From Candidatus Nanoarchaeia archaeon (GTDB lineage Archaea; Nanobdellota; Nanobdellia; Pacearchaeales; GW2011-AR1), in NCBI GenBank assembly GCA_028711165.1, contig JAQTST010000001.1, forward strand, positions 14,708-78,707: a stretch of 64,000 nt of DNA, given 5' to 3'. Both the position numbers and the translations under genes were made by a program. Of this stretch, positions 44,309 through 60,005 are shown piece after piece. The notes beneath the pieces were generated by a model that saw nothing but the letters and a program-made list of their open reading frames with translations, was not told the DNA's origin and searched no databases. Numbering within the stretch: position 1 is the first letter of the stretch; each line of letters opens with the position of its first letter.

Positions 44309-45091
44309 ATGAAAACGGTGATATTATGCGGAGGAAAAGGAACACGTTTGAAAGAAGAAACAGAATATCGCCCCAAACCTCTCGTGGAAATTGGGGGAAA
44401 ACCAATTCTATGGCATATAATGAAAATATATGACACTCAGGGTTTCAATGATTTTGTTCTTTGTCTGGGATATAAGGGGAATATGATTAAGGATTATTTT
44501 TTGAATCTTAAGGAAATGTCCAATGATTTTATGATGGATTTGAAAAATAAAGAGACAGAAACATTTAGCAATAATGAAAGTCTCAAAGGCAAGGTTTGGT
44601 TTGTAGATACAGGATTAAACAGCCAAACTGGTTCGAGGGTGGCAAGAATAAAAAAATACGTAGAGAAAGATGAAGATTTTTTCTTAACTTATGGAGATGG
44701 TGTTTCAGATGTAAACATTCAGGAACTTTATGAATACCACAAGAAAATGGATAGAATAGCGACGATTACTGCAGTTAAACCCCCATATAGGTTTGGGCTA
44801 ATTGAACTTTGCAAGGACAAGGGATTGGTTAAAAAATTTGATGAGAAACCAGATATGACAGATATGGTAATTAATGGAGGATTCATGGTTTTCAAAAATA
44901 AAATATTTGACTATTTGTCTGAAAATGAAAATTGTATTCTTGAAAAAGATGCTTTGGAAAAATTGACAACCGAAAGACAATTGGCAGCTTATGAGCATAA
45001 AGGTTTTTGGAAATGCATGGACAATCAAAAAGAAGTCGATGAATTAAATAAAATTTACCAGGAAGGGGCTCCTTGGGAGACATGGAAATGA
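44309..45091 (+). CDS. rfbF: glucose-1-phosphate cytidylyltransferase
   Basis: 'VILCGGKGTRLKEETEYRPKPLVEIGGKPILWHIMKIY' closely matches the RfbF/DdhA N-terminus. ATG at 44309; the ORF-track start is a TTG one codon upstream. Confidence 0.9.
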   Translation: MKTVILCGGKGTRLKEETEYRPKPLVEIGGKPILWHIMKIYDTQGFNDFVLCLGYKGNMIKDYFLNLKEMSNDFMMDLKNKETETFSNNESLKGKVWFVDTGLNSQTGSRVARIKKYVEKDEDFFLTYGDGVSDVNIQELYEYHKKMDRIATITAVKPPYRFGLIELCKDKGLVKKFDEKPDMTDMVINGGFMVFKNKIFDYLSENENCILEKDALEKLTTERQLAAYEHKGFWKCMDNQKEVDELNKIYQEGAPWETWK

Positions 45092-46050
45092 ATAAAGAAT
45101 TTTGGGAAAATAAAAATGTTTTAGTCACGGGGGCGGGAGGTTTTAAAGGAAGTCATTTATTGGAAAAATTAGGTGAAACAGAAGCGAACATAATTTCTCT
45201 TGTAAGAGACTTTGATCCAAAAAGTTATTTTGAAATGCAAAAACTTGGAAAGAAATCGACGGTTGTCGTCGGAGATTTAAAGGATTACAGAAAGATTTCA
45301 GATATTCTATCCAAATATGAGATCACAACAATTTTTCATCTGGGGGCGCAACCAATTGTTACAACTGCTTTGTCAAATCCTGTTGAAACTTTAGAGACAA
45401 ATATTATGGGGACGGTAAATATTCTGGATTCTGCAAGGATTAATTCTAAGATAGAAGAGATTGTGATGATTTCCAGCGACAAGGCATATGGCCCTACCGA
45501 TAAAATTCCTTACAAAGAAACAGAACGATTGCAGGGCAAAGCGCCATATGATGTTTCAAAATCATGTGCTGATTTAATTGCTCAAATGTATTCTAAAATT
45601 TTTGATTTACCCGTTACAATAGCGAGATCTGTAAATGTTTTTGGCCCGGGAGATTTAAACTGGAACAGAATAATTCCGGGGATAATGGAATCAATTATTA
45701 AAAATAAACCTCTCAAAATTAGAAGTGATGGGAAAATGATTAGAGAATATATTTATGTAAAAGACAGCATTGATGCTTATATTAATCTCGCTGAGAATAT
45801 AAAAAAAACAAGGGGAGAAGCGTTTAATATTAGTGGAAAAAATATTATGTCTGTTCTTGAAATTATTGAAAAAACGTCAGAGGCATTAGGAAGAAAAGTG
45901 AATTATGAAATAATAAATAATGCAAAGGCAGAGATTCCAAAACAATATCTCGATGGGAATAAAATTAAAACTACTTTAGGTTGGGAAGCCAAGACTAATT
46001 TTGAAGAGGCAATTAAAGAGACATTTGAATGGTATACAAAATTAATGTAA
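45088..46050 (+). CDS. rfbG: CDP-glucose 4,6-dehydratase
   Basis: 'FWENKNVLVTGAGGFKGSHL', 'YDVSK'. ATGA overlap with rfbF. Confidence 0.85.
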   Translation: MNKEFWENKNVLVTGAGGFKGSHLLEKLGETEANIISLVRDFDPKSYFEMQKLGKKSTVVVGDLKDYRKISDILSKYEITTIFHLGAQPIVTTALSNPVETLETNIMGTVNILDSARINSKIEEIVMISSDKAYGPTDKIPYKETERLQGKAPYDVSKSCADLIAQMYSKIFDLPVTIARSVNVFGPGDLNWNRIIPGIMESIIKNKPLKIRSDGKMIREYIYVKDSIDAYINLAENIKKTRGEAFNISGKNIMSVLEIIEKTSEALGRKVNYEIINNAKAEIPKQYLDGNKIKTTLGWEAKTNFEEAIKETFEWYTKLM

Positions 46051-46051
46051 G

Positions 46052-47623
46052 ATGAAAAAAAAATTAAGTTATCTGTTTGATAAAGAAAAAAGTTCTGAGA
46101 TTAAAAAACCATTATTTATATTTGACATTGCAAACAATCATAATGGCGATGTTGAGCATGGCTTGAAAATTATTCGTGAAACTTCTAAAGTATGTAATGG
46201 ATTAGAAGATAAATTTCTTTTCGGATTTAAATTTCAATATAGAGACTTAGATAGTTTTATTCATCCGGATTATAAAGACAGAAAAGACATAAGTTATGTT
46301 AAAAGATTTTCTGATACAAAATTGACAAGAAAAGAATTTGAATTAATGAAAAATGAAATAGAAAACGGAGGATTTATTTCTGTATGCACTCCTTTTGACG
46401 AGAACAGCGTCGATCTAATTGAAGAACAAAATTTTGATATAATAAAAATTGCAAGCTGTTCTTTTACTGATTGGCCTCTACTGGAAAGAATTGTCAAAAC
46501 AGACAAGCCAATAATTGCATCAACTGCAGGAGCTACTCTCGAAGAACTTGACAGGGTTGTTTCATTTCTTGAGCACCGAGATAAAAAAAGTGTATTAATG
46601 CACTGTGTTGGTGAATATCCAACTAAAAAAGAAAGTCTTCAGTTGAATCAGATAGACTTGCTGAAAAAGCGTTACCCCGAAATCACAATTGGATTTTCTA
46701 CACATGAAGAACCAAATAATCTTGATGCTGTTAAGATTGCCGTCGGAAAAGGGGCGCAAGTATTCGAGAGACATGTAAATGTTGAATCAGAAAAATATTC
46801 AATAAATGCTTATTCTTCAACGCCTGGTGAGATAAAAAAATGGCTGCAGTCTGCTGAAGAGGCTTATGAAATGTGCGGTGTGGAAAATAATCGTCATATC
46901 AGCACAGAAAAAGAAAAAAATGATTTGAGAAGATTCAGGAGAGGAGTATTCGTAAAAAGAAATCTGAAGGAAGGAGAATTATTGACAAAAGAAAATATTT
47001 TTTATGCATTTCCTTGCGGTGAAAGACAAATACTAGCAAATGATATGTCAAAATATATTGAATATATTCCTACTAAAGATATCAATACAAATGAGGCAAT
47101 TAATTTAGAAAATTTAACAATTAAAAATTCACGTGAAGATGTTTTAAGAATTGTTAAAAAATTGAAAGATATAGTTTTAGAAAGCCATATAATTTTACCT
47201 AATAGAATAGAGTTAGAGTTATCGCACCATTACGGGATTGAAAATTATGAAAAATTTGGTGCTGCAATTTTAAACTGCATTAACAGAGAGTATTGTAAAA
47301 AGTTAATAATATTACTACCGGGACAAAATCATCCTTTGCATTACCATGAAAAGAAAGAGGAAACTTTCCAAGTTTTATATGGAGATATGAATCTTAAGCT
47401 TGGAAATGAAAAAATATCATTGAAACCAGGAGATATACAGACGGTAGAAAGAAAAGTCAATCACAGTTTTTCTTCTGAGAAAGGATGTATTTTTGAGGAG
47501 GTGTCAACGACGCATTATAATAATGATTCTTTTTATGAAAATGAAGAAGTAAGAAATAATAAGAACAGAAAAACGCATATGACTTTCTGGGCAGATTGGC
47601 TATCTGGAAAAACTATAGAATGA
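46052..47623 (+). CDS. NeuB-family PEP-condensing (ulosonic acid synthase-like) enzyme fused to SAF and C-terminal cupin domains
   Basis: 'FDIANNHNGD', 'FKFQ', a TIM-barrel-length N-terminal region, and the C-terminal cupin motif 'GQNHPLHYHEKKEETFQVLYG...KPGD'. Confidence 0.7.
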   Translation: MKKKLSYLFDKEKSSEIKKPLFIFDIANNHNGDVEHGLKIIRETSKVCNGLEDKFLFGFKFQYRDLDSFIHPDYKDRKDISYVKRFSDTKLTRKEFELMKNEIENGGFISVCTPFDENSVDLIEEQNFDIIKIASCSFTDWPLLERIVKTDKPIIASTAGATLEELDRVVSFLEHRDKKSVLMHCVGEYPTKKESLQLNQIDLLKKRYPEITIGFSTHEEPNNLDAVKIAVGKGAQVFERHVNVESEKYSINAYSSTPGEIKKWLQSAEEAYEMCGVENNRHISTEKEKNDLRRFRRGVFVKRNLKEGELLTKENIFYAFPCGERQILANDMSKYIEYIPTKDINTNEAINLENLTIKNSREDVLRIVKKLKDIVLESHIILPNRIELELSHHYGIENYEKFGAAILNCINREYCKKLIILLPGQNHPLHYHEKKEETFQVLYGDMNLKLGNEKISLKPGDIQTVERKVNHSFSSEKGCIFEEVSTTHYNNDSFYENEEVRNNKNRKTHMTFWADWLSGKTIE

Positions 47624-47696
47624 TTAAAATATATTCTCAAAATATTATGAATTTTTCCTTCATAACCTTATTAAATGTGAAAAATCCTTTTTTAGA

Positions 47697-48671
47697 ATGA
47701 AAAAAGTGAAGAGACTAATCAGCATAGTTATTCCTGCGTATAATGAAGAAGAAGGATTGGATGAACTTTATAGAAGACTGCAGAAAGTTTTAGATGGTTT
47801 AGATAAATATTCTTTTGAGGTAATAATTGTAGAAAATGGTTCAAGAGATGATACCTATAAGAAATTGTTGGAGATTCATCAAAAAGATAAACGATTTAAG
47901 ATTGTTCAGTTGTCCAAAAATTTTAATTGCGATGGAGGAATAAGCGCAGGATTAAAATATGTCAGAGGTGATGCTGTAATACTTATGAATGCTGATCTCC
48001 AGGATCCTCCGGAGATTATTCCAGAGTTTATTAATAAATGGGAACAAGGATATGAAATTATTTATGGAGTTATCCAGAAAAGAAAAGGTGTTTCAATTTT
48101 AAGAAAAATGGTATCCTGGATGTTTTACCAAACAATATATTCTTTAACTAACGGACAAATTAAAAAAAATGTCAGTGATTTCAGATTAATTGATAAAAAA
48201 GTGTATGAAGTAATAAACAGTATGCCTGAGCATAATCGATTTCTGAGAGGAATGATTTCATGGACAGGATTCAAGAGCACAGGTATCCCTTTTGTAAGAG
48301 CAGAAAGATATAAGGAAGGAGGCGAAGCAAAAGTGTTGAGCATTTTCCAACGTGCAAAAAATATAAAATGGTTTGTCACAAATGCAATTTTTACATTTTC
48401 GGATTTTCCATTGAAATTAATGACCAGCGTCGGTGCTTTTACTTCTTTCTTGTCATTTATACTTGCGATGTATTTCTTGGGAGGTTATCTTATCTACGGA
48501 ACAGCTTCCCCGGGATATGTAAAAGGACATACCTCTCTGATGTTAGTTATATTATTTTTATTTGGAGTTCTATTTATTTTTTTAGGGATTATCGGTAAAT
48601 ACATTTCGAAAATTTATGATGAGGTAAAACAACGCCCGTTGTATATTGTGCGTGATAAAATCGGAGTATAG
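47697..48671 (+). CDS. polyprenyl/dolichyl-phosphate sugar synthase-type GT2 (Dpm1/ArnC/GtrB-like) with C-terminal TM helices
   Basis: 'ISIVIPAYNEEEGL', 'VENGSRDDT', 'MNADLQDPPE', and two C-terminal hydrophobic helices. Confidence 0.8.
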   Translation: MKKVKRLISIVIPAYNEEEGLDELYRRLQKVLDGLDKYSFEVIIVENGSRDDTYKKLLEIHQKDKRFKIVQLSKNFNCDGGISAGLKYVRGDAVILMNADLQDPPEIIPEFINKWEQGYEIIYGVIQKRKGVSILRKMVSWMFYQTIYSLTNGQIKKNVSDFRLIDKKVYEVINSMPEHNRFLRGMISWTGFKSTGIPFVRAERYKEGGEAKVLSIFQRAKNIKWFVTNAIFTFSDFPLKLMTSVGAFTSFLSFILAMYFLGGYLIYGTASPGYVKGHTSLMLVILFLFGVLFIFLGIIGKYISKIYDEVKQRPLYIVRDKIGV

Positions 48672-48674
48672 AAT

Positions 48675-49532
48675 ATGAAAAAAATTTTAATAACTGGGGG
48701 GAACGGATTTATAGCAAGAAATCTCTATGAAAATTTAAAAGGAAAATATGATGTTAAAACTATAAATCACCAGGAACTTGATCTGCTTGATTCACCAAAG
48801 GTGTTTGATTATGTAAATCAAAAAAAATTTGATGTTGTTATACATTCTGCTACATACGACGCTGCTCCTAAACATTCTGTTAAAGATCCTGCAAAAGTCT
48901 TAGATAATAATCTGAGAATGTTTTTTAATATTGCGAGATGCAGGGATTATTTTGGAAAGATGATTTATTTTGGTTCGGGGGCAGAATTTAGCCGAGAGCA
49001 TTGGATTCCTAAAATGAAAGAAAATTATTTTGACGAACACGTTCCAAAGGACCAATACGGTTTTTCTAAATATGTGATGACAAAATATACAAAATCAAAT
49101 GAAAATATAATTAACCTCCGACTTTTTGCAGTGGTAGGGAGAAATGATGATTGGAAAACTCGTTTTATTCCCAACGCATGCTGTCAGGCAATGGAAAAAG
49201 AAACAATAGATATACATCAGAATGCTTTTTATGATTATTTAGATGTTGATGATTTAACAAGGGTAGTAGATTGGTTTATCAATAATAATTCAAAAGAAAA
49301 AGTGTATAATGTGTGTTCTGGAAAAACTTATGACAGAAGAAGTCTGGCAGAAAAAATTGTAAAAATTTCTGGAGAAGATTTAAAGATAAATATTCAGAAT
49401 AAAGAAATTGGAAAAGAATACAGCGGAGATAATTCTCTCCTTTTGAATGAATTGGGAAATTTTGAGTTTACTCCTATAGATGATTCAATAAAAAGATTAT
49501 ATGAATGGTATAAGAGGGAGAGAAATGAGTAA
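48675..49532 (+). CDS. NAD-dependent sugar epimerase/reductase (GDP-fucose synthase-like SDR)
   Basis: 'ILITGGNGFIARNL', 'YGFSK'. Confidence 0.75.
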   Translation: MKKILITGGNGFIARNLYENLKGKYDVKTINHQELDLLDSPKVFDYVNQKKFDVVIHSATYDAAPKHSVKDPAKVLDNNLRMFFNIARCRDYFGKMIYFGSGAEFSREHWIPKMKENYFDEHVPKDQYGFSKYVMTKYTKSNENIINLRLFAVVGRNDDWKTRFIPNACCQAMEKETIDIHQNAFYDYLDVDDLTRVVDWFINNNSKEKVYNVCSGKTYDRRSLAEKIVKISGEDLKINIQNKEIGKEYSGDNSLLLNELGNFEFTPIDDSIKRLYEWYKRERNE

Positions 49533-51351
49533 ACTAAATTATCTTTTGGTGATGCCCCGATTAGTTCAGAATGTTGGGGATGGATATTCTTTCCCCCTGG
49601 GGCTTCCATATATTTCTGCTAGCATGAAAAAGTCGGGATTTAATGTAAGAACCATTAATTTGAATCATCGCGAAGGAGATATTTTTAATATTCTTGAAAA
49701 AGAAATTGAAGAAAACAAAATCAATGTTGTTGCAACGGGCGGGCTTTCCTTCCAATATACTACAATCAAGGAGGTTATTGATTCTGCTAAGAGAGTAGAT
49801 AAAAAAATTAATACAATTGTCGGGGGAGGAATTATCACAGCAGATCCAAAACCAGCAATGATTGCCTTAGAAAATGTAGATTATGGGATAATCGGTGAAG
49901 GGGAAAAGACAATATGCGAGTTAAGTGAAGCAATTGAGAAAAAATTAGATATCTGCAAAATCGATGGAGTAATTTTGAGTGATGGAAGAAGTTATGTTCA
50001 GACAAATCCCCGCAAAGAAATTGAAAATATTGATTCTATCGCCTGGCCAGATTATGAAGGATTTGAATTTGAAAAGTTCTTAGAAACATCGCCAAGTATC
50101 AGCGGGATAAATAAAAAAAATACAGCATTTATGATTGCCAGCCGTTCATGTCCTTATAGTTGCACTTTTTGTTTTCACACCCTCGGTAAAAAATATCGAC
50201 AGAGGACACTGGATAATTTTTTCGAAGAATTAGATTATATGGTAGCTAAATATGATCTGGGGTTTATTTGTTTAGCCGATGAACTTTTTTCTGCAGATAC
50301 AAAACGCACAGAAGAATTTTGCGAGAGAATAAAACCTTACAATATTAAATGGTGGGCACAATTCAGAGTCGATCAGATAGCAGAAAATCCAAAACTTCTT
50401 CCGATGCTAAAAGAGTCTGGATGTGATGTTATGTCTTTTGGATTAGAAAGTGCAGATAACCGCATTCTAAAAAGTATGAAGAAAAAAACGACAATTGAAG
50501 AAACAGAAAAAGCATTAAAATCTGTCTATGACAGCGGGATGCATTTAGAAGGTGCTTTTATATTCGGTGATATTGAAGAAACAGGGGAAACTGCAGATAA
50601 CACTTTAAAATGGTGGAAAGAACATTCAGAGTATAAAATAACTCTTAATCTTATAACCATTTACCCCGGAACTTTTCTTTATAATCATGCATGCAACAAA
50701 GGATTAATTGAAGATAGAGTTAAATTTCTTAAAGATGGATGTCCTCAGGTAAATGTTTCTAAATTAACCGACGGAGAAGTTTCTAAATTAGTTAAAGAAA
50801 TAATCGAAGCTCCCTTAACTCTAACAAAGACTCTTTCAGAAAGTAAAACGAATGTTTTAGATTACAAAACAGGAAGAATGGAGGTTTGGGGGAAATGCAG
50901 CATCTGTGATAGAGAGAATTATTGGGAAAATGTAAAATTATTTTCTTCAAGCTTTCTTGCCTGTAACAAATGCGGACAAAGATATAACTTAATTTTATCA
51001 GATGAAGTAATATCTAACATAGACGATAATTTAAAAAAATTATTGGATGAAGAGGAAAAGATAGCAATGTGGGGAATAAATTATCATGTAACAAATTTAT
51101 TTAGGAGGTCAAAATTACTCAAAGATAAAAATGTTTATCCAATTGAAATTTCACAAATGAAAAGGTTAGTTGATTTATATGGGAAAAAAGTAAATCCTCC
51201 CGAGATTATAGATTCTGAAAAAATAAAAACAGTAGTGATTCCAATTCCAGCGTATATTAATGAAATTACCGGGCGCATAAAAAAGAATCACAAAGAGGTT
51301 AAAAAAATTATAGATATTTGCGAGTTGATAAATCCAAATTATTCAAAATGA
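49525..51351 (+). CDS. class B radical SAM enzyme with zinc-ribbon and a C-terminal domain resembling the C-methyltransferase C-terminal domain
   Basis: 'IASRSCPYSCTFCFH', 'GLESADNRILKSM', 'CSICD...CNKCGQRY', then 'KIAMWGINYHVTNL...VNPPEII...VVIPIP'. Start at the ATG preceded by GGGAGAG. Confidence 0.85.
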   Translation: MSKLNYLLVMPRLVQNVGDGYSFPLGLPYISASMKKSGFNVRTINLNHREGDIFNILEKEIEENKINVVATGGLSFQYTTIKEVIDSAKRVDKKINTIVGGGIITADPKPAMIALENVDYGIIGEGEKTICELSEAIEKKLDICKIDGVILSDGRSYVQTNPRKEIENIDSIAWPDYEGFEFEKFLETSPSISGINKKNTAFMIASRSCPYSCTFCFHTLGKKYRQRTLDNFFEELDYMVAKYDLGFICLADELFSADTKRTEEFCERIKPYNIKWWAQFRVDQIAENPKLLPMLKESGCDVMSFGLESADNRILKSMKKKTTIEETEKALKSVYDSGMHLEGAFIFGDIEETGETADNTLKWWKEHSEYKITLNLITIYPGTFLYNHACNKGLIEDRVKFLKDGCPQVNVSKLTDGEVSKLVKEIIEAPLTLTKTLSESKTNVLDYKTGRMEVWGKCSICDRENYWENVKLFSSSFLACNKCGQRYNLILSDEVISNIDDNLKKLLDEEEKIAMWGINYHVTNLFRRSKLLKDKNVYPIEISQMKRLVDLYGKKVNPPEIIDSEKIKTVVIPIPAYINEITGRIKKNHKEVKKIIDICELINPNYSK

Positions 51352-51851
51352 ATACAAAAAGTGCTATAAATTTTCTGGAAGAACAGATTACAGACGCAAG
51401 AAAAGGATTACCTGAAGAAATTTTTCTTTTTGCAAGCAGCATTACTCCATTGGTAAATGTAGAATTATTAATAAAAGATGAAAATGGAAGAACGCTTTTA
51501 TCGTGGAGAGATGATAAATATGCAGGAAAGGGCTGGCATATTCCGGGGGGAATTGTCAGGTTTAAAGAAAGTTTAGAAGAAAGAATTCAGAAAGTTGCAA
51601 AAGAGGAAATTGGCACCCAGATTGAATTTGAACCTAATCCGATAGCAATAAAGCAGGTTATTTTAGAACAGAACACAAGAGGACATTCGCTGGCATTTAT
51701 GTATAAATGTTTTCTTAACAGCAAATATACTTTAGAAAATAAAGGTTTAACTGAAAAAGATGCAGGTTATTTGAAATGGCATGAATTTTGTCCAAATAAT
51801 TTAATTAAAGTACAGGAAATATATCGGGAGTTTATCAATGACTATAAATAA
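51348..51851 (+). CDS. NUDIX hydrolase (GDP-mannose mannosyl hydrolase/WcaH-like NDP-sugar hydrolase)
   Basis: Nudix box 'GGIVRFKESLEERIQKVAKEEIG'. The preceding 'TPLVNVELLIKDENGRTLL' resembles the WcaH layout. ATGA overlap upstream. Confidence 0.7.
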   Translation: MNTKSAINFLEEQITDARKGLPEEIFLFASSITPLVNVELLIKDENGRTLLSWRDDKYAGKGWHIPGGIVRFKESLEERIQKVAKEEIGTQIEFEPNPIAIKQVILEQNTRGHSLAFMYKCFLNSKYTLENKGLTEKDAGYLKWHEFCPNNLIKVQEIYREFINDYK

Positions 51852-53037
51852 ATGCAGAGTATGTGAGAATGATTTTTTTGAAAAACCGCTATTGAGGTAT
51901 GAGAATATGCCGTCGACAGCTCAATATTTACCAGATATAGAATCCTTAGAAAGAGATAAGGGAATTGTTTTGGAAGTGTGTCAATGTTCAAAATGCGGTT
52001 TGGTGCAATTAAATAATGAACCTGTTCCGTATTACAAAGAGGTTATACGTGCTTCAGGATTTTCAGAAGAAATGAAAAATTTTAGATTAGAACAATTTAA
52101 AGAATTTACAAAAAAGTATTCTTTAGGAAATAAAAAAATTATTGAAATCGGTTGTGGAAGAGGAGAATATCTCTCTCTTATGCAAAATTTTATAACCAAT
52201 TCTTCTGGACTGGAATATTCAGAAAGTTCTGTGATACAAGGAAATAGAGAAGGGTTAAGAATTTCTAAGGGATTCATCGAAAAAGATTCGGATAGATTGA
52301 AAAATTCTCCTTTTGACGGATTTTATATTTTAAGTTTTCTTGAACATTTACCAAATATTAATTCGGTCCTCAAAGGAATAAGCAACAATCTTACAGAAAA
52401 GGCAGTTGGAATAATCGAGGTTCCAAATTTTGATATGATTTTGGAAAGAAATCTTTTTTCAGAATTCGCAAGGGATCATTTATTCTATTTTACCGAAGAG
52501 ACATTGAGCTCAACATTAAACAGAAATGGTTTTGAGATTATTGAGTGCAAAGAGATATGGCAGGATTATATAATTTCTGCGGTGGTTAAAAAGAAAATTT
52601 ATGACGAGACAAATATCCCAATTAGAAAAAAAGAGAAATTAGATTTGTCTGAGTTTAATAATCATCAGAATAAAATAACAAGAGAATTAACAAATTATAT
52701 TAATCAATTTGGAGATAAGAAAACGGCCATATGGGGAGCAGGGCATCAGTCATTTAGCATTCTATCCTTGGCAAAACTCGAGGATAAGATTAGATATGTT
52801 GTTGATTCCGCAACGTTTAAGCAAGGCAAATATACTCCCGCAACGCATATTCCGATTGTTCATCCAGATACATTAATGTCAAATCCGGTGGATTCAATTA
52901 TTATAATGGCAGGAAGCTATTCTGATGAGGTTTCGAATATTATAAAAATAAAATATAAAAATAAATTAGAAGATAAAGTCAAGAAAATAAATATAGCCAT
53001 CCTAAGAGATTTTGGATTGGAGGAAATTAATGAATGA
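51838..53037 (+). CDS. NDP-hexose C-methyltransferase (second TylCIII-type copy)
   Basis: 'CRVCEN...CSKCGLVQL', 'IIEIGCGRGEYL', C-terminal 'TAIWGAGHQSFSIL...'. Confidence 0.8.
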   Translation: MTINKCRVCENDFFEKPLLRYENMPSTAQYLPDIESLERDKGIVLEVCQCSKCGLVQLNNEPVPYYKEVIRASGFSEEMKNFRLEQFKEFTKKYSLGNKKIIEIGCGRGEYLSLMQNFITNSSGLEYSESSVIQGNREGLRISKGFIEKDSDRLKNSPFDGFYILSFLEHLPNINSVLKGISNNLTEKAVGIIEVPNFDMILERNLFSEFARDHLFYFTEETLSSTLNRNGFEIIECKEIWQDYIISAVVKKKIYDETNIPIRKKEKLDLSEFNNHQNKITRELTNYINQFGDKKTAIWGAGHQSFSILSLAKLEDKIRYVVDSATFKQGKYTPATHIPIVHPDTLMSNPVDSIIIMAGSYSDEVSNIIKIKYKNKLEDKVKKINIAILRDFGLEEINE

Positions 53038-54088
53038 AGGTTTAGTAAGTATTATAATTCCCGTATATAACGGAGAAAAATATATTGATAGATGCCTGGA
53101 AAGTATTTTTAGTCAGGGTTATAAAAATATTGAGACAATATTAATAAATGATGGTTCAACCGACGGTAGCAGGGAGATATGTAACGAATATGCATTTAAT
53201 TATAATAATATTGATGTGTTTAATATAAAAAATCAAGGGCCTGCAGCGGCAAGGAATAAAGGAATAAAAAATTCAAGAGGAGAATTTATTTTTTTTCTTG
53301 ATATAGATGATTTTATCGAAAGTAATGCAATAGGGCTACTAATAAAAAATTATAATCAATACAAGGCGGACATAGTCGTTGGAGATTTCAAAAATGTTGG
53401 AAAAAGTATGACTAATTCGGGGCATAGCAATGTTTTTTCAGAAGATAAATTGATGATGAAAAAAGATATTGGAGATTATGTAAAAAAATATTTAAAAAAA
53501 CCGAACAGACATCCTTTATTTGCTTATTCTTGGGGAAGATTGTTTAAGTCTTCAATCATAAAAAATAAGGATATTAAATTTGATGAAGATTTACATACTT
53601 TTGAAGATGTGGCTTTTAATTTTGAATATTTAAAGCATACTGATAAAATCTTCTTTGTAAATCAGGCGATATATAATCATCAGATGTATGACAGTTTTAA
53701 TTCTGCAACAATGGATATTGGAAATAATCCAAAAAAATTATTTGGTTATAAGAAAGCACTTGAAAATGTTAAAAATTTTCTTGAGTGTAGTGATTTAGAA
53801 AATATTAATATAAAAAAAGAGGTGGGGCACGCAGATGTATGTTATACAATAATTCAGTTAATCCGCACTTGTGGACAAATAAATAAAAATAATGAAAAAG
53901 AGATTTACAAACTTGTCCACGAGATTGTTAATGAACTAAATTTCAGAGATAACCTTCAGTTTTATTCTCCATCAAAAGGAGACAGTAAGATTATTCCAAT
54001 GCTGATGAAGCTGAAACTTGTCACACCAATTACTAAATTATGCAAACATAAAGCGTATAAAAGATATAACAGAGGCAATAAGAAATGA
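53030..54088 (+). CDS. family 2 glycosyltransferase
   Basis: 'VSIIIPVYNGEKYI', 'INDGSTDGS', 'FLDIDD'. Confidence 0.85.
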   Translation: MNEGLVSIIIPVYNGEKYIDRCLESIFSQGYKNIETILINDGSTDGSREICNEYAFNYNNIDVFNIKNQGPAAARNKGIKNSRGEFIFFLDIDDFIESNAIGLLIKNYNQYKADIVVGDFKNVGKSMTNSGHSNVFSEDKLMMKKDIGDYVKKYLKKPNRHPLFAYSWGRLFKSSIIKNKDIKFDEDLHTFEDVAFNFEYLKHTDKIFFVNQAIYNHQMYDSFNSATMDIGNNPKKLFGYKKALENVKNFLECSDLENINIKKEVGHADVCYTIIQLIRTCGQINKNNEKEIYKLVHEIVNELNFRDNLQFYSPSKGDSKIIPMLMKLKLVTPITKLCKHKAYKRYNRGNKK

Positions 54089-55275
54089 AAAAAGATATCA
54101 TTGAAGATAAAAATCTCCCTGTAATAATATTTGGTGCAGGTATTGTTGGTGAAGCATTATTTAATGTGTGCAATGAGGTGGGGGTTAAAGTTGAATCTTT
54201 TTGCGACAATAATAAAAATAAAACAAAATTAAATAAATGCGGGACAAAGGTATTTACCCCTGCTGAAATAAAAGAGGAATATGGGGATGCAAATTTTTTA
54301 ATATCTGCTGCGGATATAAAAGATGTTGTTGATCAATTAGAAGAGTTGGGGTTTTCAAAATGGTATGCTGGCAGTTTGTTGTTAAAAGATTTTAACGTCG
54401 ATAAATATAAATTTAATGCTTTGGGAGATTTTGTCAGATATGCTGTTGATACCTGTATTTTATGTCAAGACAATTATCTAAATCCAAATAAACTTTTTTT
54501 AAGAAGTGTGGATTTAATCATCACTGAACGCTGTTCTTTAAAATGCAAGAACTGTTCCAATCTTATGCAGTATTATGAAAAACCAAAAGATTGTGATTAC
54601 AGAGAATTGAAAAAATCTATAGATTCATTTTGTAACATCGCTGACGAGATTAATGAATTCAGAATTTTGGGGGGGGAACCGTTTATGAATAAAGATTTTG
54701 ATTTAACAATAAAAAGATTAATTAATGAGCCCAAGGTTAAAAAAGTTGTAATTTACACAAACGGTACAATAGTGCCTGAAGAAAACAAAATTGACAGTTT
54801 GAAAGATGATAAGGTACTTTTACTGATTACAGATTATAATAACCTTTCAAGAAAATTAGAAAATTTAACTGAGAAATTGTCAAAAAAAGATATTTCTTTT
54901 TATGTACAAAAAGCACAAGGATGGACTAATTGTAGTGATATATTCAAACATTATAGAAATATTGAAGAACAGAAAAAAATCTTTCAAAATTGTTGTGCTC
55001 GAAATACTTTTACATTATCGAACGGAAAATTATACAGATGTCCTTTTTCTGCAAATGCCGACAGACTTAGAGCAGTTCCGAATCTTGAGAGAGATTATAT
55101 AAATATTTTTAAGGAGAAAAATGTCCAAGAGATGAAAGAAGAAATTAAAGAGTTTATTATGAAAAAAGATTTCCTTGAAACATGTGATTATTGCAATGGG
55201 AGGTCATTTGGAGATACTGAAATAGAACCTGCAATTCAAATAAAAAAATCCTTGGAATATAAAAAATATGAATGA
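54085..55275 (+). CDS. radical SAM protein with N-terminal Rossmann-like (NeuD/PglD-N or C-methyltransferase-C-like) domain
   Basis: 'LPVIIFGAGIVGEALFNVCNEVGVKVESFCDNNKNK', then 'CSLKCKNCSN', 'LGGEPFMN', C-terminal 'CCARN...YRCPFS...CDYCNG'. Confidence 0.75.
   Translation: MKKDIIEDKNLPVIIFGAGIVGEALFNVCNEVGVKVESFCDNNKNKTKLNKCGTKVFTPAEIKEEYGDANFLISAADIKDVVDQLEELGFSKWYAGSLLLKDFNVDKYKFNALGDFVRYAVDTCILCQDNYLNPNKLFLRSVDLIITERCSLKCKNCSNLMQYYEKPKDCDYRELKKSIDSFCNIADEINEFRILGGEPFMNKDFDLTIKRLINEPKVKKVVIYTNGTIVPEENKIDSLKDDKVLLLITDYNNLSRKLENLTEKLSKKDISFYVQKAQGWTNCSDIFKHYRNIEEQKKIFQNCCARNTFTLSNGKLYRCPFSANADRLRAVPNLERDYINIFKEKNVQEMKEEIKEFIMKKDFLETCDYCNGRSFGDTEIEPAIQIKKSLEYKKYE
54669..54676 (+). repeat. G8 homopolymer inside a radical SAM gene
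   Basis: 'ttggggggggaacc' encodes L-G-G-E (the GGEP motif). Confidence 0.9.
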
Positions 55276-56362
55276 ATTAAAACAGAATGAATTAGAGAAG
55301 AGAAGTTGGTTAAAAGAGAATAAACCAAGAGTTTATGAAAAGGTTTCAAAATTCGCTGAAAAAGCAAAAAGGGGAGAGAGCATTGCGATAATTCAATTTC
55401 AGTATGATTATACTTGCAATTTTAAATGCCCGCATTGTTCAGTAAAAAGATTTCAGGGAAAAAAGCAAGGCAGATATTTTACGATTAAAGATGTCGAAGA
55501 ACTTTCACGGCAGGCTGATGAAATGGGGCTTGCAAATATGGTAATTACGGGAGGAGAACCATTGGTATTTCGGGATTTGGATTATTTAGTTAAAGCAATC
55601 GATCCTAAAAAATTTTATATTTCTTCAGATACAAATGGGTGGTTGTTAAATTATGAAAAAGCAAAACATTTGAAAGAAATTGGTATTGATAAAATTCAAT
55701 TAAGTCTTGACAGCATTACAGAAAATAATTCAGAGAATTTTCATGGAAAGGGAAAAACAAACGGTTGGGCATTAAAAGCTCTTGATGCATCATTAAAAGC
55801 TGAATTAAATACAATTGTTCAGACAGTCGTTACAAAACAGAGAGTTCGGTCAAAGGAGTTTATTGATTTCTTAGAATACCTAAATAAAAAAGATGTGGGA
55901 GTTTTTGTCACTTATGCAAAACCTGTTGGGGCATGGGAAGGAAATTTTGATATTCTCGTCGATAAAGAAGATATGAATTATGTAAAAGAACTGGAAAAAA
56001 GATATAAGGTTTTCACACATTTAACTCCTTCATACGGACTTGACTTGGGATGTATTGCAGTCAAAAGAATGATATCAATTACAAAATATGGAGATGTTAT
56101 GCCTTGTCCTTATATTCATGTTTCACTTGGAAATTTTTTTAAAGAACCGTTAAAAGATATTGTCGAGAGAGGCTTAAAAATAAAATATTTTGGAAATCAT
56201 TGTGATACTTGCCTTATTGCAGAAGACAGGAATTTTATTGACAAATACGTTGTTGGCAGAATATATAACAAACCTCTTCCAGTGCCCTATGATAGGGTAT
56301 TTGATAAAGAGGATTTTATTGAAAAACCTGATTTTGTAAAAAAAGATATCTTAACTCAATAA
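55268..56362 (+). CDS. radical SAM protein with SPASM/twitch-like C-terminus
   Basis: 'CNFKCPHCS', 'ITGGEPLV', 'VMPCPYIH...HCDTCL'. Confidence 0.85.
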   Translation: MNELKQNELEKRSWLKENKPRVYEKVSKFAEKAKRGESIAIIQFQYDYTCNFKCPHCSVKRFQGKKQGRYFTIKDVEELSRQADEMGLANMVITGGEPLVFRDLDYLVKAIDPKKFYISSDTNGWLLNYEKAKHLKEIGIDKIQLSLDSITENNSENFHGKGKTNGWALKALDASLKAELNTIVQTVVTKQRVRSKEFIDFLEYLNKKDVGVFVTYAKPVGAWEGNFDILVDKEDMNYVKELEKRYKVFTHLTPSYGLDLGCIAVKRMISITKYGDVMPCPYIHVSLGNFFKEPLKDIVERGLKIKYFGNHCDTCLIAEDRNFIDKYVVGRIYNKPLPVPYDRVFDKEDFIEKPDFVKKDILTQ

Positions 56363-56372
56363 TATTTTTAAA
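56363..56372 (+). promoter_or_regulatory. TATA-like box (internal promoter in the long plus-strand gene array)
   Basis: 'tatttttaaa' lies 22-31 nt upstream of the ATG at 56394. Confidence 0.3.
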
Positions 56373-56393
56373 CAGATTAATCAGATTTTGATT

Positions 56394-58025
56394 ATGAAAC
56401 TTAGTGATTATGTGACTTCTTTTACAGAGAAAATGACTGACAGTATTTTTTTAGTTTCTGGCGGGGGGATTATGCATCTTGTTGATTCTATTGGGAGAAG
56501 TAATCTTGACAGCTACTGCTGCCATCATGAACAAGCGTGTGCATTGGCTGCTGAAGGATATGCCAGAATGAAAAATGATATTGGTGTTATTTGCGTTACA
56601 ACAGGGCCGGGAGGAACAAATGCAATTACAGGAGTTGCGGCAAGCTGGATGGACGGAATTCCTATGATGGTAATTTCCGGACAGGTGAGAAGAGAAATAA
56701 TGCTAAAAGAAAAAGATAAAAAAAGAGGATTAAGGCAAATCGGTCCTCAGGAACTTAATATCGTTGATGTTGTTAAACCAATCACAAAATATGCTGCGAC
56801 TGTAATGAATCCTAATGAGATAAAATATCATTTAGAAAAAGCAAGTTATATTGCTAAAGAAGGCAAGCCCGGACCTGTTTGGATTGATATACCTTTAGAT
56901 GTTCAGAGTTCTGAAATTGATGAAGAAACTTTAAAAAATTTTTCAGTTCCAAAAAAACAAAAGCTACATATTCCTCTTGAGAAAATTGTCAATGAATTAG
57001 AAAAATCAAAAAAACCATTGATGCTCGTTGGACATGGAGTTAGGCTTGCGGGAGCTTATGATTTATTGTGGGAGTTTATTGAGAAATCTAAAATTAATGT
57101 TGTCTCAGCAATGAGCGGGGATGATTTAGTAAATGAAGATTATCCTTATTACCTTGGCAAGCAAGGAATGACTGGAACAAAGGCAGCAAATTATGCCGTC
57201 GATAATTGTGATTTATTACTTGTTCTTGGAACGAGAATGCAAATGAGACAGACATCTTTTGATTATGATAAATTTGCTAAAAAAGCTAAGAAAATTATGG
57301 TAGATATTGATAAAGCCGAGCTAGATAAAATTAATTTTAAACCGAATATAAAAGTAGAATCTGATGCAAAAGATTTTTTAGAAAATATCTTGGAAAAAGA
57401 GATTAGATTAAATCGGTGGCAGGTTAATACAGAACCTATTCTTTATGAAAGCAAAAAAAATTTTATAGATATTTATGAATTTTTCCAAGAAGGATTAAAT
57501 GGGAAATGTGATTTTCCGATTATTACATCAAATGGGATGACTGCTGAAGTTACTCACCAAGCTGCGAGATTAAAAAAAGGACAGAGATTGATAACAAATA
57601 CTGCTCTTGGTGAAATGGGGAAGGGGTTGCCGATGGCGATTGGAGCATGTATTGCAAATAAGAAAAAACCTGTAATCTGTATGGAAGGCGATGGTTCGAT
57701 AATGATGAATCTTCAGGAATTAGAAACAATGAAATATCATAATCTCCCATTGAAAGTTTTTATTTTTAATAATGGAGGTTACTATTCTATAAGAAATACC
57801 CACAGGAAATTTTTTAATAAAATTTTTGCTGCGGATGAAGAATCGGGAGTAAGTCTTCCCAACTGGGAAAATTTGATTAATGGGTGGGGGATTAAATATG
57901 AAAAAATAAAAAATAAAAATGATTTGTATAAGATTAAAAATATTTTAGATTATCACGGGCCAGTTGTTTGTGAACTGATGATTGATCCAGAACAAAAGGG
58001 ACTTCCGAAATGGAGTGCAAAATGA
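56394..58025 (+). CDS. ThDP-dependent acetolactate-synthase-like carboligase (YerE-like candidate)
   Basis: 'TTGPGGTNAITG', ThDP motif 'GDGSIMMNLQELET...FNNGGY'. First ATG at 56394; the ORF-track start is a TTG. Confidence 0.8.
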   Translation: MKLSDYVTSFTEKMTDSIFLVSGGGIMHLVDSIGRSNLDSYCCHHEQACALAAEGYARMKNDIGVICVTTGPGGTNAITGVAASWMDGIPMMVISGQVRREIMLKEKDKKRGLRQIGPQELNIVDVVKPITKYAATVMNPNEIKYHLEKASYIAKEGKPGPVWIDIPLDVQSSEIDEETLKNFSVPKKQKLHIPLEKIVNELEKSKKPLMLVGHGVRLAGAYDLLWEFIEKSKINVVSAMSGDDLVNEDYPYYLGKQGMTGTKAANYAVDNCDLLLVLGTRMQMRQTSFDYDKFAKKAKKIMVDIDKAELDKINFKPNIKVESDAKDFLENILEKEIRLNRWQVNTEPILYESKKNFIDIYEFFQEGLNGKCDFPIITSNGMTAEVTHQAARLKKGQRLITNTALGEMGKGLPMAIGACIANKKKPVICMEGDGSIMMNLQELETMKYHNLPLKVFIFNNGGYYSIRNTHRKFFNKIFAADEESGVSLPNWENLINGWGIKYEKIKNKNDLYKIKNILDYHGPVVCELMIDPEQKGLPKWSAK

Positions 58026-58693
58026 AAATAGAATCAATAATATTTGATTTTGATGGGGTGCTTGTAAAATCGAATCAAATAAGAAATCAGACTTATTTTG
58101 ATATATTGAGCCATGTACCAAATTCTAAAAAAATAATAGAAGAGGCAATTGCAGAAGATTCAAAAAGAGACAGATATGGAATTATCGAGGCTGTTTTGCA
58201 AGAATTGAAAGATAAAAATTTAATGCAGTTTGAAGATTTAGGAGAAGAAACAGAAAAATATGTTTGCAGGTATAATTGGATTACAGAGAGGAAAGTTTCA
58301 ATAGCTACAGAAGTACCCGGAGCTGAAAAAAGTTTAGAAATGTTAAGCCAAGAATATCCTTTGTTTATTGTTACAGGAACAATTCAAAAAAGTATAGATA
58401 TAGTTTTAAAAAATAGAGAGATGCAAAAATATTTCAAAAAAGTTTATGGGGGATTCAGAGACAAAAAAGAAGGTATGACTATCTTAATAAAAGAACAGAG
58501 GATAAAACAAAGAAGTTCTATTTTTGTTGGAGATGGAAAATCAGATTATGAATGTGCGAGATATCTTTCAATGCCCTTTATAGGAATAATGAATGAAACA
58601 AATGATTTTGAAAAGAGACAAGATGTTATGTGGAAATTGTATGATTTAGAAAAATTACCTAATGTAATCAGAGAGATAAAAGAGAATGAATGA
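58022..58693 (+). CDS. HAD-superfamily hydrolase
   Basis: 'IIFDFDGVLV' (DxDG motif I), 'VGDGKSDYECA' (motif IV). ATGA overlap upstream. Confidence 0.75.
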   Translation: MKIESIIFDFDGVLVKSNQIRNQTYFDILSHVPNSKKIIEEAIAEDSKRDRYGIIEAVLQELKDKNLMQFEDLGEETEKYVCRYNWITERKVSIATEVPGAEKSLEMLSQEYPLFIVTGTIQKSIDIVLKNREMQKYFKKVYGGFRDKKEGMTILIKEQRIKQRSSIFVGDGKSDYECARYLSMPFIGIMNETNDFEKRQDVMWKLYDLEKLPNVIREIKENE

Positions 58694-60005
58694 AGAAAAA
58701 AAGTTAAGAAAAGAAATTTTGGAAAGAGTTAAACAGATATATAATTTAAGAAAAGAAAATGAAAAGTTTACTCCTGGAATTGACAGAGTTAATTATTCAG
58801 GAAGAGTTTTTGACGAAAAAGAGATGTTAGCTCTTGTGAATAGCTCTCTTGATTTTTGGCTAACTCTCGGGAAGGAAGGAAAAGAGTTTGAAAAAAAATT
58901 TGGAGATTATCTGGGGTTGGAAAAAGTAATTGTTTGTAATTCTGGCTCTTCTGCAAATTTACTTGCAATAAGTTCTCTGTGCTCTCCGACGATTGATAAT
59001 CCATTAAAAAGGGGAGAAGAGATTATAACAACTGCCGCAACTTTTCCTACGACATTAGCTCCGATAATCCAGAATAACTTAATTCCAGTTTTTATCGATA
59101 TAAACTTGGGGGATTATAACATTCAAGCAGAAAAAATTGAAAAAGCAGTTTCAAAAAAAACAAGAGCTATCTTTTTTGCTCATACATTAGGAAATCCTGC
59201 AGATATGGAAAAAATAATGCGGATAGCAGATAGATATCATCTTTATGTTATTGAAGATACCTGTGATGCTCTTGATTCAAAATATGATGGAAAGTTAGTA
59301 GGAACTTTTGGAGACATATCTACATATAGTTTTTATGCCGCTCACCACATAACTATGGGGGAGGGGGGCGCATTAGCAACAAATAATTCTAAAATTGCAA
59401 GAGCAATATTATCCCTGAGAGATTGGGGAAGAGACTGTCTCTGTCCAACTGGAGAAAAAAATCCTCTTGGTGCATGCGAGAGCAGATTCAAACATAAATT
59501 TCCTCTGCTTCCTGAAGGATATGATCATAAATATGTTTACAGCAATATTGGGTATAATTTAAAACCGTTAGATTTGCAATGTACAATTGGAATAGAACAG
59601 TTAGAAAAATTACCCGAATTTTCAAAAAAGAGAAAAGAGAATTTTCAACAGATTTATAATACATTCTCAAAATATGAAAATAAATTAATTTTACCGTCGT
59701 GGAATCCAAAAGCAGATGTTTCCTGGTTTGCATTTCCTATCACTGTAAAAGAAAATGCGGGATTTGGAAGAAGAGATATTGTAAATTTTCTGGAGAATAA
59801 AAAAATTGAAACTAGAATGTTATTTGGAGGAAATATTTTAAGACAACCGGGTTTTACTAAAATAAAAAAGAGAATTGTAGGAGATTTAATAAATACAGAC
59901 AGAGTTTTGAATGATACTTTTTTTATTGGAGTTTATCCCGGATTGACTAAAGAGAAAATCAATTATGTATGTGAAAGCATTGAAGATTTTTTTAAGAAGT
60001 ACTAG
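58686..60005 (+). CDS. rfbH: CDP-6-deoxy-4-hexulose 3-dehydrase (E1; RfbH/DdhC-like PMP enzyme)
   Basis: About 439 aa. 'SSLDFWLT', 'RDWGRDCLCPTGEKNPLGACESRF' (Cys-rich Fe-S region typical of RfbH), DegT-like fold. Confidence 0.8.
   Translation: MNEEKKLRKEILERVKQIYNLRKENEKFTPGIDRVNYSGRVFDEKEMLALVNSSLDFWLTLGKEGKEFEKKFGDYLGLEKVIVCNSGSSANLLAISSLCSPTIDNPLKRGEEIITTAATFPTTLAPIIQNNLIPVFIDINLGDYNIQAEKIEKAVSKKTRAIFFAHTLGNPADMEKIMRIADRYHLYVIEDTCDALDSKYDGKLVGTFGDISTYSFYAAHHITMGEGGALATNNSKIARAILSLRDWGRDCLCPTGEKNPLGACESRFKHKFPLLPEGYDHKYVYSNIGYNLKPLDLQCTIGIEQLEKLPEFSKKRKENFQQIYNTFSKYENKLILPSWNPKADVSWFAFPITVKENAGFGRRDIVNFLENKKIETRMLFGGNILRQPGFTKIKKRIVGDLINTDRVLNDTFFIGVYPGLTKEKINYVCESIEDFFKKY

Follow-up and report, generated by a model that had tools for sequence, protein, structure and literature searches.

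A predicted gene cassette for a C4-branched CDP-3,6-dideoxyhexose in a DPANN archaeon

Which sugar is made where an archaeon encodes enzymes for cytidine diphosphate (CDP)-4-keto-3,6-dideoxyglucose and a YerE-like thiamine diphosphate (ThDP) carboligase, yet no recognizable E3 reductase (AscD/DdhD) for its E1-type 3-dehydrase? The question is raised by a stretch of 64,000 nucleotides, termed here the window, from Candidatus Nanoarchaeia archaeon (GenBank assembly GCA_028711165.1, contig JAQTST010000001.1, positions 14,708 to 78,707), for which a sequence-only reading had proposed a yersiniose-type branched sugar. The window lies within the 623-kb contig of a 637-kb genome with a completeness of 88.6%. 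The 16S gene on the same contig scored 1287 bits with an archaeal model vs. 996 bits with a bacterial model, and the named homologues of the proteins under study belong to Pacearchaeota, Woesearchaeota, Nanoarchaeota, and Patescibacteria. The host is a DPANN (Pacearchaeota-like) archaeon.

The genes in question are part of an array of 18 consecutive plus-strand genes (41268-60005) with intergenic spacings of -34 to +73 bp, and there is a reasonable likelihood that the array is a single cassette for a glycan precursor. The likeliest product is probably a CDP-linked 3,6-dideoxyhexose, branched at C4 with a side chain from a NeuB-made ulosonic acid, and not yersiniose. A fuller reading is offered tentatively and with less than even confidence: the cassette may join a NeuB-made ulosonic acid, whose aldose precursor perhaps is released from a CDP-deoxysugar by a Nudix hydrolase, to CDP-4-keto-3,6-dideoxyglucose, giving a C12-or-larger branched sugar that radical S-adenosylmethionine (SAM) enzymes would reshape, with E1 drawing on general electron carriers, here an EFR1-family protein.

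The CDP-sugar genes and the ThDP carboligase

The core of the argument rests on five genes:

44309..45091, plus strand: RfbF, glucose-1-phosphate cytidylyltransferase (TIGR02623, 305.5 vs. a cut-off of 300.25)
45088..46050, plus strand: divergent RfbG-like short-chain dehydrogenase/reductase (SDR), presumed CDP-glucose 4,6-dehydratase (TIGR02622, 219.6, below the cut-off of 278.45)
56394..58025, plus strand: YerE-like (JanthE-like) ThDP carboligase (TPP_enzyme domains, Protein Data Bank (PDB) matches, tree)
58010..58693, plus strand: HAD-family phosphatase (Pfam HAD_2)
58686..60005, plus strand: E1 (RfbH/AscC/DdhC-type), 3-dehydrase dependent on pyridoxamine 5'-phosphate (PMP) and [2Fe-2S] (NF011936, 629.7 vs. 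a cut-off of 423)

Profile or domain matches corroborated all five genes (rfbF, rfbG, ThDP, HAD, and rfbH) as assigned in the sequence-only reading. The ThDP, HAD, and E1 genes overlap by 16 and 8 bp, and rfbF and rfbG are located 10 kb upstream in the same array. RfbF is 42-53% identical to the products of the E1-adjacent rfbF genes found in 70/80 bacterial loci. The RfbG-like gene overlaps rfbF by 4 bp, and its product shares 44-54% identity with homologues in cassettes of candidate phyla radiation (CPR) bacteria and DPANN archaea.

The 3-dehydrase scored 479.7 bits with Yersinia E1 (PDB 3BCX) and 180.5 bits with ColD. In an alignment with the RfbH proteins of Salmonella, Azospirillum, and Desulfobaculum, His-220 (AAHHITMGEGG), which stands in place of the aminotransferase lysine, was invariant, as were all four [2Fe-2S] cysteine columns (C193, C251, C253, and C261 in Yersinia/Salmonella numbering). 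The ligands in the window protein are C193, C251, C253, and C264, with a 3-residue insertion that makes the last spacing X10 instead of X7; the cysteine-rich peptide quoted in the earlier reading begins at residue 245. When the cysteine motif was examined for differences linked to E3, this insertion proved not to be shared by other E3-less E1 proteins. Given these residues and the large difference in score, a ColD-like enzyme or an aminotransferase was rejected. The prior assignment of an E1-type enzyme with Fe-S ligands is upheld by the NF011936 score above cut-off, the far better match to 3BCX than to ColD, and retention of His-220 and the four cysteines. Overall, RfbF, the RfbG-like SDR, and E1 are predicted from their sequences to convert glucose-1-phosphate to CDP-4-keto-3,6-dideoxyglucose, in agreement with the route that had been proposed.

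All three Pfam TPP_enzyme domains (_N, _M, _C) are present in the ThDP enzyme, as is a GDG-X26-NN motif. The best PDB matches were 8RPH (335.5 bits) and 5AHK (262.9 bits), with values of ≤226 bits for plant and E. coli acetohydroxyacid synthases (AHAS), and the HHEQ motif bearing the catalytic glutamate aligns with both 8RPH and 5AHK. The CDG motif of 8RPH and a review of these enzymes (PMC12247030) identify it, by inference, as JanthE. The window enzyme belongs to the YerE-like family of E1-adjacent ThDP carboligases and is closest to JanthE.

Relationships were assessed in a tree of 66 sequences rooted on PoxB and obtained by a quick IQ-TREE search. The tree took in E1-adjacent ThDP genes of named bacteria, homologues from relatives of the host and from CPR/DPANN genomes, Gcl, and a few AHAS references (E. 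coli, Salmonella, and Alkalihalophilus), and ErwE, MMAR_2332, MyGE, PpYerE, and YpYerE were represented by synteny-defined stand-ins such as the ddhDABC-ThDP locus of Yersinia vastinensis. All of the E1-linked enzymes fell in a clade of 59 rows, supported at 99% in the Shimodaira-Hasegawa-like approximate likelihood ratio test (SH-aLRT), that excludes IlvB, IlvG, IlvI, and Bacillaceae IlvB; one AHAS-like gene from a related DPANN genome grouped with AHAS. The Yersinia vastinensis, Aeromonas, and Gallionella enzymes formed a separate basal subclade of seven rows (100%), which includes the enzymes encoded directly after ddhDABC in Yersinia vastinensis and Aeromonas. The window enzyme is placed in the other clade, of 52 rows (99%), where a CPR/DPANN group (100%) is sister (87%) to proteobacterial NeuB-linked enzymes.

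The best NCBIfam matches of the ThDP enzyme are named as acetolactate synthase large subunits, as would be the case for a genuine AHAS of branched-chain amino acid synthesis. However, the scores are far under the family cut-offs (353 vs. 738; 344.8 vs. 538.35), no PF00920, PF01450, IlvH, or IlvN match indicative of ilvC, ilvD, or an AHAS small subunit was detected in the genome, and the tree separates the enzyme from AHAS at 99%. A genuine AHAS is refuted by this combination, and the likelihood left to it is vanishingly small. When plasmids were searched with the ThDP enzyme by tblastn, only AHAS genes (30-34% identity) and no labelled YerE were retrieved. The earlier placement of the enzyme in the YerE-like class and not with AHAS is therefore retained, and it is predicted to be a sugar carboligase of this type that acts on a CDP-keto sugar. 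Strict orthology with the pyruvate-dependent YerE of Yersinia is not supported, as the window enzyme lies outside the Yersinia subclade and belongs to a subfamily that is linked to a fusion of NeuB and cupin domains (NeuB-cupin).

Conserved partner genes and the predicted side chain

Further genes of the array are:

41936..42673 and 42670..43149, plus strand: split transketolase-like pair, ThDP-binding N domain and pyrimidine-binding domain, respectively (Pfam Transketolase_N, Transket_pyr)
43199..44248, plus strand: radical SAM/SPASM protein (Pfam Radical_SAM and SPASM)
46052..47623, plus strand: NeuB-family synthase with C-terminal cupin (Pfam NeuB and Cupin_2)
47697..48671, plus strand: family 2 glycosyltransferase (GT2), polyprenyl-phosphate sugar synthase type, PgfS/ArnC-like (NF047588, 233.8; NF007986, 147.4; each below cut-off)
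48675..49532, plus strand: SDR reductase/epimerase, candidate YerF-like or 4-keto reductase (Pfam Epimerase, RmlD_sub_bind)
49501..51351, plus strand: B12-binding radical SAM enzyme, probable C-methyltransferase (Pfam B12-binding and Radical_SAM)
51318..51851, plus strand: Nudix hydrolase, GDP-mannose mannosyl hydrolase-like (NF011963, E = 4.6e-11; PDB 2I8T/1RYA)
51838..53037, plus strand: TylC3-like nucleoside diphosphate (NDP)-hexose C-methyltransferase (Pfam Methyltransf_14, Methyltransf_13)
53012..55275, plus strand: GT2 (53012-54088) and radical SAM protein with N-terminal extension (54085-55275) (Pfam)
55268..56362, plus strand: ThDP-linked SPASM radical SAM protein (Pfam)

The gene content around ThDP homologues of ≥53% identity was compared in those metagenome loci, 16 in number, that had ≥15 kb of flanking sequence. 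NeuB-cupin was present in all 16, E1 and the SPASM radical SAM protein of 55268-56362 in 14 each, and Nudix in 13. Lower counts (3-8/16) were obtained for the SDR, the C-methyltransferase, the GT2-radical SAM pair of 53012-55275, and the B12 radical SAM genes. At the same identity threshold, E1 follows ≤3 kb downstream of the ThDP gene in 17/28 loci. Among the 80 bacterial E1 loci, a NeuB-cupin homologue is found beside E1 in 16, always with a ThDP gene (16/16) and never with E3. Compact operons of the composition rfbF-rfbG-E1-NeuB-cupin-ThDP-C-methyltransferase-Nudix-SPASM radical SAM are present in Chromobacterium sinusclupearum, Thauera aminoaromatica, and a Beijerinckiaceae metagenome-assembled genome, with proteins 39-49% identical to those of the window. 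NeuB-cupin, Nudix, the TylC3-like C-methyltransferase, and the SPASM radical SAM protein accompany ThDP and E1 not only on CPR/DPANN contigs but also in Chromobacterium, Thauera, and Pseudomonas, a pattern that marks them as conserved partners in the cassette. The pathway had been described as split by ~10 kb of radical SAM, glycosyltransferase, and methyltransferase genes: the stretch is real, but its genes are conserved members of the cassette and not interruptions.

The cassette is accessory and patchy. A ThDP homologue (E ≤ 1e-50) was found in 7/61 related genomes, this genome included; those of the six relatives share 34-48% identity with the window enzyme and, where examined, have no E1 nearby. 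E1 occurs in 14/300 high-quality genomes of the phylum. The nearest relatives of the ThDP enzyme are encoded on unlabelled metagenome contigs (74-86% identity), followed by Patescibacteria proteins (up to 68%), and the distribution of relatives is consistent with gene exchange involving CPR bacteria and DPANN archaea.

The NeuB domain of the NeuB-cupin protein matched PF03102 with 145.4 bits and the uncharacterized, SpsE-like PDB entry 3G8R with 363 bits; sialic and pseudaminic acid synthases gave weaker matches, and the scores with the equivalogs TIGR03569 (144.8 vs. 399.65) and TIGR03586 (141.1 vs. 340.25) were both below cut-off. The cupin replaces the SAF domain of the NeuB/PseI/LegI nonulosonic acid synthases and resembles lyxose, ribose, and mannose-6-phosphate isomerases, which are aldose-ketose isomerases. 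The protein probably works like NeuB but outside the characterized equivalogs, and is presumed to make a 3-deoxy-2-ulosonic (alpha-keto) acid from phosphoenolpyruvate (PEP) and an aldose. That the product is such an acid is argued by Patescibacteria proteins of 930-954 aa (P0121-P0124) that combine NeuB-cupin and two cytidylyltransferase domains (PF01467 and PF02348) in one chain, of the type that forms cytidine monophosphate (CMP)-KDO and CMP-NeuAc. In those organisms the ulosonic acid apparently is CMP-activated rather than, or besides, feeding the ThDP enzyme. No member of this cytidylyltransferase family was detected in the present genome, and so the acid would not be CMP-activated here.

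Among known enzymes, the Nudix protein most resembles GDP-mannose mannosyl hydrolase, by which a nucleotide-bound sugar is set free, and also is encoded in the Chromobacterium, Thauera, and Beijerinckiaceae operons; it presumably releases a free sugar from an NDP-sugar. HAD, which shares 32% identity with the C-terminal part of a 787-aa ThDP-HAD fusion (P0090), is a recurrent, non-universal partner. The SPASM radical SAM protein of 55268-56362 shares 75% identity with the N-terminal half of a 927-aa radical SAM-ThDP fusion (P0043), one of a set of such fusions of 918-927 aa, and is represented at 40-44% identity in three proteobacterial operons. The SDR of 48675-49532 recurs at 41-68% identity in 13/40 close cassette loci and the GT2-radical SAM pair (53012-54088 and 54085-55275) in 8-9/40. 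Homologues of the B12 radical SAM enzyme were found at 52-58% identity in three cassette loci, those of the TylC3-like C-methyltransferase at 42-46% identity in bacterial and 57-64% in CPR/DPANN cassettes, and those of the GT2 of 47697-48671 in several cassettes.

The window holds both a split transketolase-like pair (41936-43149) and a YerE-like enzyme. Such pairs are E1-adjacent in 16/80 bacterial loci and immediately precede E1 in two DPANN genomes, and the role ascribed to the window pair is that of a second candidate C-branching enzyme. Ketone-accepting split transketolases are listed solely from Streptomycetes in a 2025 review (PMC12247030).

The biosynthetic scheme suggested by these genes would begin with Nudix, which would free a sugar from a nucleotide sugar; the cupin domain then may isomerize this sugar, and the NeuB domain would join it with PEP, yielding a 3-deoxy-2-ulosonic acid, from which HAD would strip phosphate if the aldose were phosphorylated. 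The ThDP enzyme would decarboxylate the ulosonic alpha-keto acid and attach the resulting acyl unit at C4 of the CDP-keto sugar. The SDR, C-methyltransferases, and radical SAM enzymes would tailor the product, which the ArnC/PgfS-like GT2 could transfer to polyprenyl phosphate. E1 would receive electrons from a general low-potential carrier, with an EFR1 flavodoxin-ferredoxin fusion as candidate. By analogy with ErwE, MMAR_2332, and MyGE, which ligate hydroxylated, aldolase-made C4-C8 2-oxo acids to the same CDP-keto sugar (PMC9306805), NeuB-cupin, aided by Nudix and HAD, may supply a long alpha-keto acid donor. As the ThDP subfamily is always accompanied by NeuB-cupin, the side chain probably is long rather than the two-carbon branch of yersiniose, and the yersiniose-type label probably was too narrow for an enzyme of this subfamily that lies outside the Yersinia subclade.

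Yersiniose itself, or a sugar of its type, would be formed if the ThDP enzyme were the equivalent of YerE and placed a pyruvate-derived acetyl unit on CDP-4-keto-3,6-dideoxyglucose, followed by reduction by an SDR, with NeuB, Nudix, and the radical SAM proteins serving other sugars. The enzyme does belong to a YerE-like, E1-linked family, its best structural match JanthE takes pyruvate among other donors (PMC12247030), and a candidate reductase (SDR 48675-49532) is kept in the cassette. Nevertheless, the enzyme is outside the subclade with the ddhDABC-linked enzyme of Yersinia vastinensis, NeuB-cupin accompanies the close homologues of the ThDP enzyme in every one of the 16 long-flank loci and in bacterial loci never occurs without ThDP, and a composition that is constant across three domains or superphyla is hard to square with unrelated sugars. 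A yersiniose-type product accordingly appears unlikely, though worth keeping in mind.

A further possibility is that two independent pathways merely are co-located: one to an unbranched CDP-3,6-dideoxyhexose of the abequose, paratose, or tyvelose type, and a separate pathway, to an ulosonic acid or otherwise, with a non-CDP substrate for the ThDP enzyme. This arrangement would fit relatives from within the genus that have ThDP homologues (39-48% identity) and B12 radical SAM genes and no E1 within 10 kb, as well as the capacity of NeuB-cupin to be fused to CMP-ulosonate synthetase-type domains. However, E1 is present in 14/16 long-flank loci and within 3 kb downstream of ThDP in the majority of the 28 loci noted above, the ThDP-HAD-E1 genes overlap in the window, and no CMP-ulosonate synthetase was found in the genome. 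Two separate pathways therefore are considered quite improbable.

Electron supply to E1 and points of doubt

No Fer2 (PF00111) or NAD_binding_1 (PF00175) match indicative of E3 was found in the genome at its 88.6% completeness with Pfam profiles that were positive in most control genomes, and the best tblastn hit in the genome with the RfbI protein of an annotated Salmonella rfb locus had E = 5.5. These searches extend the reported lack of a recognizable E3 from the 64 kb to the whole genome. What had been regarded as an oddity is, however, the commonest state of E1 loci, a dedicated E3 being characteristic of the textbook pathway rather than of the E1 family. Within 10-kb flanks of the 80 bacterial E1 genes, rfbF was detected in 70 loci and rfbG in 73, but E3 in only 19. 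Among the 121 sequences of an E1 tree, the 20 from loci with E3 are confined to three derived proteobacterial/Bacteroidota subclades, and the DPANN, metagenome-cassette, Chloroflexota, and Bacillota E1 loci have no E3 nearby. E3 likewise was found near none of the close ThDP homologues in 80 metagenome loci and in 0/16 NeuB-type bacterial E1 loci. Moreover, there is a published precedent in SpnQ, an E1-type enzyme that uses general ferredoxin or flavodoxin reductase pairs without E3 (PMC8987622). The E3 puzzle is largely dissolved by these observations.

An E3 that is present but unseen, either encoded in the ~11% of the genome missing from the assembly or provided by the cell that hosts the archaeon, was weighed against this explanation. 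The incomplete assembly leaves room for such a gene, and DPANN archaea generally are thought to depend on hosts for many functions. Against this, protein sharing is not known for cytoplasmic nucleotide-sugar synthesis, and E3 is missing from all 80 metagenome cassette loci. When ten other E1-bearing DPANN genomes were searched with Salmonella E3, three gave no match, one of which is a single contig of 829 kb. The other seven gave matches solely to the ferredoxin-NADP reductase (FNR) module (query residues ~97-316; 22-32% identity) without the Fer2 part, and these never were on the E1 contig. An unseen E3 thus is very unlikely.

As E1 keeps its Fe-S ligands, it must take electrons from a general low-potential carrier and not from E3. 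The sole ferredoxin/flavodoxin-type protein in the genome is an EFR1-family fusion of flavodoxin with two [4Fe-4S] motifs (C3:287789-288568, minus strand), whose gene adjoins that of a PadR regulator. No counterpart was found in 40 related genomes (E ≤ 1e-10), which marks it as an accessory gene of this species. The only other flavoprotein of the pyridine-nucleotide-disulphide type that was found (Pfam Pyr_redox_2) is TrxB-like. The EFR1 fusion, as the only candidate in the genome, is guessed to be the electron donor of E1. The 15 radical SAM genes of the window, like E1, need a low-potential donor. A general role for the SPASM radical SAM protein as replacement for E3 was rejected, as it is absent from 13/16 E3-less bacterial NeuB-type loci.

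Several observations weigh against the proposal that a NeuB-made acid is joined to the CDP-keto sugar with E1 served by general carriers. The gene for the EFR1 protein is located ~210 kb beyond the window, and a ferredoxin is rarely encoded in the cassettes themselves: an open reading frame (ORF) with a CxxCxxCxxxCP motif was detected in only 2/54 loci, the other 52 having no ferredoxin gene. With the donor distant and the cassettes devoid of ferredoxin, its identity amounts to a guess. No NeuB-ThDP fusion was found, and the link from NeuB to the ThDP donor is one of co-occurrence and chemical logic. The SPASM radical SAM protein of 55268-56362 is present in just 3/16 bacterial NeuB-type loci, and an ORF with a HAD motif (DxDG[TV]) intervenes between ThDP and E1 in 8/28 loci, and thus in only some cassettes. 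The best NCBIfam model for the RfbG-like SDR, that of CDP-glucose 4,6-dehydratase, was matched under its family cut-off. JanthE-type enzymes also accept pyruvate (PMC12247030), by which a two-carbon branch could still be formed. Finally, relatives of the same genus or family possess ThDP homologues with no E1 within 10 kb, and other acceptors may exist for the family.

If the fuller reading, with a C12-or-larger branched sugar, is correct, the cassette would represent the first acyl-branched sugar pathway in Archaea, E1-type 3-deoxygenation would normally be served by general ferredoxin or flavodoxin carriers, and E3 would be a late proteobacterial add-on.

The surrounding island and comparison with known systems

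The window contains 15 radical SAM genes among sugar-nucleotide and glycosyltransferase genes, four of which encode B12-binding proteins and ~9 of which encode proteins with SPASM-type domains, a density that is unusually high for glycan tailoring. These genes, and one that follows the array, are:

Radical SAM genes 1-8: 1903-3018, 6506-7534, 15137-16672, 18666-19649, 19646-20830, 25725-27014, 27016-28632, 31465-32514
Radical SAM genes 9-15: 32516-33556, 35045-36142, 40240-41181, 43199-44248, 49501-51351, 54085-55275, 55268-56362
60007..61470, minus strand: protein without Pfam match, weakly resembling LA_3751/LA_3752 putative glycosyltransferases (NF047440, E = 1.9e-5, far below cut-off)

The protein encoded at 60007..61470 may be a partner of the polyprenyl-phosphate GT2. 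The region 8537-14261 encodes a heptose-type nucleotide-sugar set comprising an NTP transferase, a GHMP kinase-HAD phosphatase fusion, a second GHMP kinase, a SIS isomerase, an SDR epimerase/dehydratase, and a cytidylyltransferase-like protein. The region 36193-40236 holds another TylC3-like C-methyltransferase (36193-37440), two RmlD-type reductases, and a further methyltransferase, a combination suggesting that the island specifies a second C-methylated deoxysugar. The nucleotide-sugar dehydrogenase ORF at 61590-62459 (289 aa) matches only positions 69-296 of a 413-position family model and may be a truncated gene or have a mis-called start.

Elsewhere, marine and other metagenome contigs carry tandem ThDP pairs (~35% and 41-44% identical to the window enzyme) in the absence of E1. 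These are accompanied by a homologue of the 41268-41930 methyltransferase and by ordinary DegT-type aminotransferases, and constitute a different system. In three genomes of the same genus or family as the host, the ThDP homologues (38-46% identity) adjoin B12 radical SAM genes and homologues of the radical SAM gene at 43199-44248; one of these homologues is an 851-aa open frame, and one genome (G013) has two copies. It seems that the ThDP family has other acceptors in these E1-less relatives.

YerE-like enzymes are wanted as catalysts for chiral tertiary alcohols, and their sugars are major surface antigens. The cassette points, in its gene content, to PEP-dependent NeuB-type donor supply instead of a pyruvate aldolase and to radical SAM enzymes that may act on branched nucleotide sugars, and it provides a natural test case for E1 reduction without E3. 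Approximately a tenth of a 637-kb DPANN genome is devoted to surface-sugar chemistry, the 15 radical SAM genes included, an investment relevant to the attachment of DPANN archaea to, and their recognition by, hosts. As the cassette also is present in culturable Chromobacterium sinusclupearum, Thauera aminoaromatica S2, and Pseudomonas capeferrum WCS358, the chemistry is directly testable.

Among known systems, the yersiniose A pathway of Yersinia pseudotuberculosis (DdhA-D/AscA-D, YerE, YerF) shares with the window homologues of RfbF, RfbG, and E1 and a ThDP enzyme of the same wider family. In contrast to that pathway, the window has no E3 (DdhD/AscD), its ThDP enzyme lies outside the Yersinia subclade, and NeuB-cupin, Nudix, HAD, and radical SAM genes are additional. 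JanthE (PDB 8RPH/8RPI/8RPJ) and PpYerE (PDB 5AHK) share the three-domain architecture and the HHEQ glutamate with the window enzyme, which has a canonical GDG motif where JanthE has CDG; the alignment with 8RPH comprises two stretches of moderate identity. SpnQ, the thymidine diphosphate (TDP)-4-keto-2,6-dideoxyglucose 3-dehydrase of spinosyn biosynthesis (PMC8987622), likewise is an E1-type PMP/[2Fe-2S] enzyme without a dedicated E3. However, the substrate of SpnQ is a TDP sugar, and its actinomycete producer has many redox partners, whereas in the window organism a single flavodoxin-ferredoxin fusion and a single TrxB-like flavoprotein make up the whole set.

The clusters for erwiniose (ErwE/ErwF/ErwI/ErwJ), caryophyllose (MMAR_2331/2332), and gastriose (MyGE/MygI/MygF), in which long 2-oxo acids are the donors (Steitz et al., 2022; PMC9306805), resemble the cassette in that CDP-4-keto-3,6-dideoxyglucose genes adjoin a ThDP carboligase of the decarboxylase (DC) type, an enzyme that can make a hydroxylated alpha-keto acid, a reductase, and sometimes a methyltransferase. 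The donor-making enzyme of these clusters is a pyruvate aldolase, whereas that of the window would be a PEP-dependent NeuB-family synthase with a cupin and with Nudix and HAD helpers. The window cassette also differs in its SPASM and B12 radical SAM enzymes and its archaeal host. Overall, the cassette would extend the YerE-like acyl-branched sugar pathways with a NeuB-type route to the donor, radical SAM partners, and carriers among the archaea, for which no description was found in the literature covered, to which the survey of Krug et al. (2024) did not belong.

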